IMG/VR virus record: IMGVR_UViG_3300037439_000258
Coordinates: 1 to 56,613 of that record
Source: a virus
Taxonomy: Duplodnaviria > Caudoviricetes
Direction: 5' to 3' (one strand)
Length of the DNA stretch: 56,613 bases
Positions 42,626-43,625 of the stretch are shown here, in pieces. Each line of letters begins with the position of its first letter. Within the stretch, counting starts at the first letter, position 1. The translations under genes and the position numbers were made by a program. The notes beneath the pieces are model-generated. The model was given only the letters and a program-made list of their open reading frames with translations. It had not been told where the DNA came from and ran no database searches.

Positions 42626-43434
42626 GAGCGATATCGTGCCGCCACGGTCGACAGGTGTGGCGTGGACAATTGGAGAGTGCGCGACGACTGGGAGCGTTCT
42701 CGGTAGTCCTCGAGGCGATCGAATGATGCGGCGAGTCCTTGTTCGTTTTCCGCGAAGCATTCCGCACCCGATTGGTTTTCCAGATAGCCCGCTTCAGGAC
42801 TCAAGATGCACGGCGTACCAGAAGCTTGAGCATTTGCTGCCTTCACCCCGGACTTCCAGAACCGCGCCGGGTAACCCGTGGCCTCTCTCAGCGCCACCAC
42901 GATATCCACCTCGGCCAGCGTCTGCGGGTTCAGGACGAACTTCCAGCGGCGGGCGGCGCACTGCTTCTCGACGATCTGCCGCCAACAGCCCAGATGCTTT
43001 TCCCCGCCCTGGTACCCGACCTTGTGCACCCGTTCCCGAATCGGGTTCAGTTCTTGCCCGGGTCGGGCGTGATGGGGAATGCAGATCACCGGGAGGTCAA
43101 ACTCGGCGCAGTCCGCTGCCATCTGCTGGGTGGCGGCGACGATCGCTTTCGGCCTGATGCGGCGGACCTGTCCCCGCAACCAGGTCAGTGCCGCCTCCTT
43201 GTCCCAGTGGTTGCCCATCGGCTGCGTCCAGGCGTCGACGACATCCCAGACGACCGGGACTCCACGCAAGCGCTCAATCAGCCTGTCGTCGCACCGCTTG
43301 ACCAGAATCGCTAGGTCGTAGCCCTTGCTGATTACTGCATTCGCTTCGACGGTCGCGCCGATCGCCTTGCCGAGCTGCGCGCCACGGATGGCCCAGGAAC
43401 CGCTGGTGCCGCGCCCGGTGACCAGGATCTTCAC
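42601..43434 (-). CDS. putative GT-B glycosyltransferase
   Basis: GSW.IRG.QL, VVWDVVD, IPHH, VGY.G, KS.VK..NA.A.G.P. Confidence 0.6.
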   Translation of the reverse strand: MKILVTGRGTSGSWAIRGAQLGKAIGATVEANAVISKGYDLAILVKRCDDRLIERLRGVPVVWDVVDAWTQPMGNHWDKEAALTWLRGQVRRIRPKAIVAATQQMAADCAEFDLPVICIPHHARPGQELNPIRERVHKVGYQGGEKHLGCWRQIVEKQCAARRWKFVLNPQTLAEVDIVVALREATGYPARFWKSGVKAANAQASGTPCILSPEAGYLENQSGAECFAENEQGLAASFDRLEDYRERSQSSRTLQLSTPHLSTVAARYRSWLEALRF

Positions 43435-43625
43435 AAACAATCAGGAACGGGCAACCGCCAGTCGCGCTTCTTCGGCTCTGCCAATCGGCGAAGCAACGTG
43501 GGCCGTATGAACTGGTCCAAATCGCCGTCGAGGACCGACCGAACGTCGCTCGTCTGGACCCCGGTCCGAAGGTCAGTCACGTTCTGGCGATCCAGGACAT
43601 ACGTGCGGACCAGTTGTTCGCTCAT
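43431..43625 (-). CDS. 64-aa protein resembling the C-terminus of peptide chain release factor 2
   Basis: VRTYVLD...[22 protein letters not shown] versus RF2 IRSYVLD...IKDLRTGVET.N..AVLDG.LD.FI. Confidence 0.75.
   Translation of the reverse strand: [64 protein letters not shown]

Follow-up and report, generated by a model that had tools for sequence, protein, structure and literature searches.

A 64-amino-acid open reading frame in the late operon of a phage with homology to the last domain of release factor 2

The small ORF and its homology to RF2 domain 4

The DNA analysed here is IMG/VR virus record IMGVR_UViG_3300037439_000258, positions 1-56,613, and we refer to this whole stretch (56,613 bases, G+C 64%, completeness rating 79%) as the window. 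It belongs to a phage that we class as a temperate siphovirus. In its late block, on the minus strand, an open reading frame (ORF) encodes a protein of 64 amino acids (aa), hereafter the mini-protein, which resembles the C-terminal end of bacterial release factor 2 (RF2, PrfB). A preliminary description, made from the sequence alone, had reported this ORF with ATGA and GTGA overlaps at its two ends, and we confirmed its coordinates, strand (-) and sequence. The features needed first are the following.

43431-43625 (-), ORF of the mini-protein, 64 aa, ATG start, TGA stop
43494-43610 (-), residues 6-44, homolog of RF2 domain 4 (phmmer against PDB; TIGR00020)
43434-43493 (-), residues 45-64, basic tail of 20 aa ending in a P-V-P-D-like motif
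43622-44206 (-), upstream orphan ORF of 194 aa, with no homolog but itself, no family and no usable Atlas match
42601-43434 (-), downstream ORF of 277 aa, weakly GT4-like (PF13579, E 1e-4, below cut-off)
39409-45430 (-), accessory island of ~6 kb, between the major tail protein and the tail assembly chaperone

The ORF is locked to both neighbours. Precisely, its ATG (43625-43623) shares the ATGA at 43622-43625 (-) with the TGA stop of the upstream ORF, and its TGA (43433-43431) shares the GTGA at 43431-43434 (-) with the GTG of the downstream ORF, for which an alternative TTG start lies at 43440. Such 4-nt stop/start overlaps occur at 12 of the 38 late-gene junctions of this phage, and TGA, previously said to end most genes, is the stop codon in 42 of the 51 genes listed for the window. 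The frame is of coding type for this genome (GC1 0.65, GC2 0.42, GC3 0.74). The RNA fold z-score at the ORF was 0.21, an RNA-level check of the region revealed no promoter-like site, and one terminator-like site was observed against 1.5 expected. Of the sequencing runs listed for this sequence, one, perhaps the source sample, is of DNA and none is of RNA.

Residues 6-44 of the mini-protein aligned without gaps to residues 323-361 of E. coli RF2, with 22 of the 39 residues identical (phmmer against PDB chains, E 1.3e-8), while the RF1 chains reached an E of about 0.03-0.1 only. The NCBIfam model TIGR00020 (prfB) was matched at positions 313-352 of its 353, with E 1.5e-10 and 40.6 bits. The proposed likeness to the RF2 C-terminus is hence a significant match to PrfB, at a score far under the TIGR00020 cut-off of 370 bits; the mini-protein does not qualify as a full-length RF2, domains 1-3 being absent. 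A profile of such mini-proteins (see below) matched RF2 at E 3e-19 versus 1.5e-5 for RF1. As judged from these alignments, the mini-protein is an isolated true copy of the last domain of RF2. The homologous part comprises what we take, from RF2 structures, to be a 17-aa strand-turn-strand segment and a 10-aa helix segment; in RF2 these two strands and the last helix complete the decoding superdomain formed by domains II and IV.

We found no Pfam family for the mini-protein at E up to 1, RF-1 (PF00472) included, because the segment lies largely outside the Pfam RF-1 model, and 18 proteins of this kind had no Pfam match at E up to 0.01 either. The GGQ and SPF motifs, which the preliminary description had not seen in the mini-protein or in the flanking ORFs, are indeed absent from them; besides the mini-protein, the check covered 11 island or sialyltransferase-like proteins, none of which has either motif; tblastn with full RF2 and four partial release factor (RF) forms revealed no second RF remnant in the window. 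Lacking GGQ, SPF and domains 1-3, the mini-protein can neither read stop codons nor hydrolyse peptidyl-tRNA, and so it is no working release factor.

Domain 4 and domain 2 of RF2 form superdomain II/IV, a term used in PMC8012679; PMC8012679 and PMC12646239 provide the background on this superdomain and on the RF2 switch loop. The mini-protein (64 aa versus about 365 for RF2) shares only the likeness to domain 4. It lacks domains 1-3, GGQ and SPF; the switch-loop W-G-x-Q, which in RF2 stands just before the strand, is replaced; an invariant K and a nearly invariant E are changed; and it has its own basic tail, whose 20 aa compare with a median of 9 aa and a maximum of 25 aa for RF2 tails (n=96 RF2).

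The ArfB/YaeJ/ICT1 and PrfH proteins, which act outside canonical termination, resemble the mini-protein in that each stands alone and corresponds to just a part of a class I release factor. They are built on the catalytic GGQ domain, which the mini-protein lacks, and to our knowledge the known truncated RF relatives (ArfB/ICT1, PrfH) all keep that domain. Among the NCBIfam models only those of prfB and RF1 matched the mini-protein; at E up to 0.01 the models of ArfB and PrfH did not. By these sequence comparisons, and with the exception of domain-4 homology, the mini-protein fails the tests that define RF2, ArfB and PrfH.

Free-standing relatives and other partial forms of RF2

An exhaustive phmmer search of the mini-protein against 1.84 billion representatives gave 310 matches. 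The four best, self excluded, were short proteins of 67-78 aa (P0009, P0010, P0011 and P0013; 46.6-53.7 bits) and not full RF2. We considered as mini-type any protein with at most 12 aa ahead of [IV]R[ST]Y, and among the top 149 matches 12 were of this type. A proline two residues past the final helix motif (FIxP) is common to the window mini-protein and three of the four top matches; elsewhere among the 157 proteins collected it occurs in one, a frameshifted-looking RF2 fragment.

For the wider comparison we defined a provisional group of mini-proteins, represented by proteins of 50-90 aa whose start codon precedes [IV]R[ST]Y by about 22 codons at most and which have no RF-like sequence upstream. 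The window mini-protein, 64 aa long and starting 5 residues before VRTY, belongs to it. A profile search among short proteins gave 7269 matches, mostly partial RF2 from short contigs, and further mini-proteins were gained from it. The P-V-P-D-like end of the tail recurs in other members, as P[IV]P in P0001 and P0010 and as APIPQ in P0164, and in a tail alignment the window tail resembles those of P0010, P0164 and P0025.

We also scanned 2.9 million viral contigs and confirmed 14 RF2-like loci, as follows.

3 of 14, full or partial ordinary RF2
2 of 14 (L014, L015), domains 2 and 4 of RF2 in direct succession, GGQ domain lacking
1 of 14 (L016), GGQ domain and domain 4 (a second such form, L002, came from a separate search)
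7 of 14 (L010, L012, L013, L017, L018, L019, L020), domain-4-only ORFs
1 of 14 (L021), degenerate domain-4 copy

Free-standing homologs of about 60 aa, for which the preliminary description had proposed a search, therefore exist in other phage contigs and in metagenomes. All 8 viral mini-proteins have an in-frame start 0-31 codons ahead of the homology, and the homology boundary is identical in all 8, just ahead of [IV]R[ST]Y. Three of them directly adjoin the large terminase gene and others are near a ParB-like or a tail-fibre gene.

Similar cupin-like ORFs were seen near the mini-protein in L012 (1468-1941) and L017 (1718-2062), the latter matching PHROG 7851 'cysteine dioxygenase'; the mini-proteins of these two contigs may not be independent, because the contigs share 67-69% identical DNA elsewhere. 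An 'RLPVP' shared past the stop of the L013 mini-protein was dismissed, since it sits in the frame of another gene, downstream of a TAATG overlap.

Other collections gave RF2 of ordinary type. A metagenome scan with P0009 returned ordinary RF2-type matches only (best 80 of 421), the contig of P0009 itself not being among these. RF2-like sequence was present in 39 records filed as phages; among those examined, from which the Prevotella Lak phage matches were left out, there were no mini-proteins, as 5 were unannotated frames of RF2 length (285-406 aa) and 3 were annotated prfB. The RF2 genes of phage records are thus RF2-length where examined, unlike the mini-protein. Likewise, 32 plasmid records held no mini-protein, all the matches listed being of prfB type. 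In a full-text literature search, conducted at abstract level, we found no published description of stand-alone RF2 C-terminal proteins of phages.

The domain 2+4 forms are represented by L014:4392-5186 (+), of 264 aa, and L015:4026-4562 (+), of 178 aa, both viral, and by the metagenomic P0087, of 183 aa. As in the mini-protein, the sequence is RF2-derived, the catalytic domain is missing and the same domain 4 is present. Domain 1 is missing as well as the GGQ domain, SPF is replaced by SPH, SPY and SPI, and L014 carries AAVMD, a C-terminus of mini type. These three proteins could be catalytically dead stop-codon binders, if their sequence is a guide: since they keep the decoding domain 2, they could in principle sit on a stop codon, which the window mini-protein cannot do.

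Two further viral forms, L002:5743-6126 (+), of 127 aa, and L016:4698-5183 (+), of 161 aa, have no parts other than the GGQ domain and domain 4. Their matches are to the prfA/prfB models and, at weaker scores, to PrfH and ArfB, and they have VRTY/VTD-type residues in common with the window mini-protein. The metagenomic P0145 (389 aa) joins in one frame a tyrosine-integrase-like N-terminal part and the last ~110 residues of RF2; such a fusion could be due to chimeric assembly or to the insertion of an element in prfB.

Sequence constraint and the possible role of the mini-protein

As a reference for conservation we used 119 RF2 sequences and considered as conserved any column in which at least 94% of them agree. 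The mini-protein keeps 13 of the 16 conserved columns, its residues there being R, Y, L, D, R, T, V, L, D, G, D, F and L, versus 10 of the 23 variable ones (Fisher p 0.024). This pattern fits a protein in which the fold would be kept and the contacts specific to RF2 released, although part of it is detection bias, because a copy without the core would have gone unnoticed. A near-invariant RF2 glutamate is kept in just 6 of the 12 aligned mini-proteins, that of the window counted. The ratio of nonsynonymous to synonymous substitution rates (dN/dS) was uninformative because synonymous sites are saturated between the mini-protein and the compared sequences (dS at least 1.1 or undefined).

The preliminary description had offered a mimic or decoy, a modulator of termination and a captured host fragment as candidate explanations; the two that mainly compete are a functional microprotein and a relic whose frame translational coupling keeps open. 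We observed the homology to RF2 domain 4, the stand-alone architecture and the embedding in an operon, and also that such proteins recur, with their own motifs, in unrelated phages. On these we base the reading that we tentatively prefer, with slightly less than even confidence, namely that the mini-protein is a putative translated, non-catalytic mimic of RF2 domain 4. It would be a microprotein of the late operon that has diverged within a family sparsely represented in phages and metagenomes, whose members have, of RF2, domain 4 only, to which a short family-specific head and a basic tail are added.

We infer that the mini-protein acts by mimicry, in that it would offer the surface of RF2 domain 4 to the usual packing or binding partner of that surface. 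Candidate partners are domain 2 of RF2 itself, during folding, or a protein that docks on the II/IV sheet, such as ArfA or BrfA. According to a review, ArfA and BrfA recruit RF2 via an extra strand on the sheet of superdomain II/IV (PMC8012679). The outcome would be a perturbation, late in infection, either of RF2-dependent UGA termination or of RF2-dependent ribosome rescue of the ArfA/BrfA type.

We favour the mimic because the architecture recurs, the boundary is fixed, some motifs are specific to the family and retention is biased to the core of RF2. As regards the motifs, a C-terminal A[AV][TV]x[DE] is present in 7 of 47 mini-type proteins versus 1 of 211 others, and a head motif foreign to RF2, M[RK]x[IVN][RE]DTxxP, in five proteins (P0021, P0072, L017, P0127 and P0180); these counts are indicative only, because the motifs were defined post hoc and the mini class holds probable RF2 fragments, a caution that weakens the argument. 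The window mini-protein has neither the strict A[AV][TV]x[DE] end nor the N-terminal head motif.

Several other results weigh against a mimic, and most of them suit a relic, in which a fragment of host prfB or of a truncated phage RF, captured with or into the island, would be decaying. In that case the amino-acid sequence would be irrelevant and the frame would be open only since ribosomes have to pass through it before translation of the GT4-like gene can restart at the GTGA, as the 4-nt overlaps on both sides would allow. Precisely, the mini-protein is a singleton without close ortholog, its 90% cluster having one member from one contig, and the metagenomic mini-proteins are nearly all singletons too; those of viruses are very rare (about 8 in the 2.9 million contigs). 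The identity to any RF2 or other mini-protein is 56-69% over about 39 residues, and two residues of RF2 are lost, a K present in 119/119 sequences, changed to T, and an E present in 117/119, changed to Q. The ESM Atlas model of the exact protein, a single-sequence one, is very poor (pTM 0.11, pLDDT 0.39), which fits either a segment that requires a partner or a relic. A degenerate copy (L021) also occurs in viral contigs. The nearest relatives of the phage, i.e. 5 viral and 9 prophage loci with marker proteins 42-65% identical, lack both the mini-protein and the whole island.

In a tree of 117 rows and 40 columns the mini-proteins are on long terminal branches relative to RF2, a further point against the mimic. 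In this tree, where 76 of the 114 inner branches are open, the window mini-protein groups with P0022, P0123, L016 and L002, which may be due to long-branch attraction.

Since the mini-protein is a singleton and its family rare and fast-evolving, we consider the relic a serious, if doubtful, possibility. It sits badly with the biased retention of the conserved core and with the best matches, which are other stand-alone mini-proteins with common features foreign to RF2. In addition, the boundary before [IV]R[ST]Y is the same in all 8 viral mini-proteins, unlike that of random fragments, and no other RF remnant flanks the ORF.

If the mimic is real, its relevance is in the following points. Few components of translation are as conserved as class I release factors, and the stand-alone copies of domain 4 hint at an undescribed means by which phages could interfere with translation stop. 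Together with the GGQ-less domain 2+4 forms, a recurring phage protein that consists of the non-catalytic last domain alone would provide viruses with a new handle on termination or on ribosome rescue. Moreover, mini-proteins would serve as small natural probes of the interface between domains II and IV of RF2.

A broader reading, which we regard as unlikely, takes the domain-4-only and the domain 2+4 proteins (L014, L015, P0087) together. Phages would hold a modular set of catalytically dead pieces of RF2 that modulate the host RF2 competitively or in a dominant-negative manner, and this set would tune UGA termination, read-through, frameshifting, reinitiation at overlaps or RF2-dependent rescue, with the window mini-protein as a diverged member. 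If true, these pieces would constitute an undescribed class of translation-termination mimics.

Finally, the mini-protein could be a replacement, of attP type, for the 3' end of prfB: phage DNA would insert into the end of the host gene, and the copy on the phage would make this gene whole again. Fragments of this kind are known, as for icd in phage 21 and e14; in them, as in the mini-protein, a phage copy covers just the 3' end of a host gene and has a sharp 5' boundary. In favour of this explanation, the phage encodes a tyrosine integrase (20430-21635) and is temperate, and the sharp and conserved 5' boundary of the homology would suit a crossover core. The mini-protein differs from the icd-type fragments in that it does not lie beside the integrase, which is 22 kb away; it is locked inside an operon by the overlaps on both sides, and two of its residues differ at positions where RF2 shows essentially no change, which would probably impair a hybrid RF2. 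Furthermore, a mini-protein or a domain 2+4 form is present in records that are rated 99% (a carrier of a mini-protein) and 100% complete and have neither a serine recombinase nor a tyrosine integrase above cut-off.

As for bacterial genomes, a class-level search found at least one match in 386 of 400 (a tally that takes in G304, G047, G316 and G149, flagged as unpublished and not used for any particular claim), with two matches in about 30; in the 5 of these that were checked, the second match was of RF1 length and not a displaced fragment. We found no publication joining prfB, attB and prophage. On the distance of the integrase, the operon embedding, the altered residues and the integrase-less complete records we rejected this explanation as the main one, and we regard it as highly improbable.

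The accessory island and the late block

The identities of the genes in the siphovirus late block, on the minus strand, were obtained from PHROG matches. The integrase, on the plus strand, closes the list.

54415-56172 (-), large terminase
52253-54337 (-), head protein with protease-like part
50371-51789 (-), portal
late block (-), adaptor, neck and tail terminator genes
45433-45879 (-), major tail protein
38613-39065 (-), tail assembly chaperone
35944-38616 (-), tape measure
late block (-), tail proteins and endolysin
20430-21635 (+), tyrosine integrase

The accessory island contains, in addition to the mini-protein, a GT8-like gene, a 2OG-Fe(II) oxygenase, two methyltransferase-like genes, two paralogous genes of no assigned type, the GT4-like gene and the 194-aa orphan. 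It may be a module for the modification of virion proteins or of the host surface, as far as these gene types suggest. It shows no odd composition, its G+C is like that of its surroundings and it has no flanking repeats; among the PADLOC defence families there was just a generic 2OG-oxygenase match. The island is absent from the viral relatives L003 and L004, in which the chaperone and tape measure genes come immediately after that of the major tail protein (60% identical). The nine prophage relatives, with portal proteins 42-55% identical, are in Metarhizobium, Caballeronia, Paracoccus and others.

This position, inside a block of modifying enzymes and with translational coupling to both neighbours, raises the alternative that the mini-protein is an accessory subunit or adaptor of the island enzymes or of the 194-aa orphan, a scaffold or substrate-like module unrelated to the host RF2. 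The mini-protein and the upstream ORF are also weakly alike in a pairwise comparison, which seemed in agreement with it. That likeness (VIDGDLD, pairwise BLAST E 0.005) fell to chance level in the profile comparisons (hidden Markov model, HMM, E 0.49 over 1002 six-frame ORFs; hhalign 7%), and we treated it as chance and rejected a paralogy of the two ORFs. Neither the 194-aa orphan nor the GT4-like ORF had relatives in scans of viral contigs, and a scan with a 22-aa N-terminal alignment gave 51 matching stretches, none of which could be confirmed by tblastn. No island gene is common to the window and the other 7 viral contigs with a mini-protein, whose neighbours are different (terminase, ParB-like, tail fibre). 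The accessory subunit is hence, in our opinion, rather improbable.

Within the island there are short DNA repeats ~2.8 kb apart together with the paralogous genes of no assigned type (44675-45430 and 41834-42760), which suggest an old duplication of a module.

Elsewhere in the late block, two paralogs 52% identical to each other (46833-47453 and 48408-49058, minus strand) match PHROG 4603 'alpha-2,3-sialyltransferase' with E 1e-38 to 1e-40. Their genes alternate with those of the head-tail adaptor and neck, where glycosyltransferase-like genes are not usually located. The product of 52253-54337 (-), 694 aa long, matches head-maturation protease families with its N-terminal part and also major head protein families, which suggests a fusion of protease and capsid in one gene; this gene precedes the portal gene instead of following it. 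In the early region, an ATPase gene adjoining the integrase (17948-19555, plus strand) has weak matches to the terminase large subunit and to FtsK-like proteins. Separately, a phosphoadenosine-phosphosulfate reductase-like gene lies at 2587-3528 (-).

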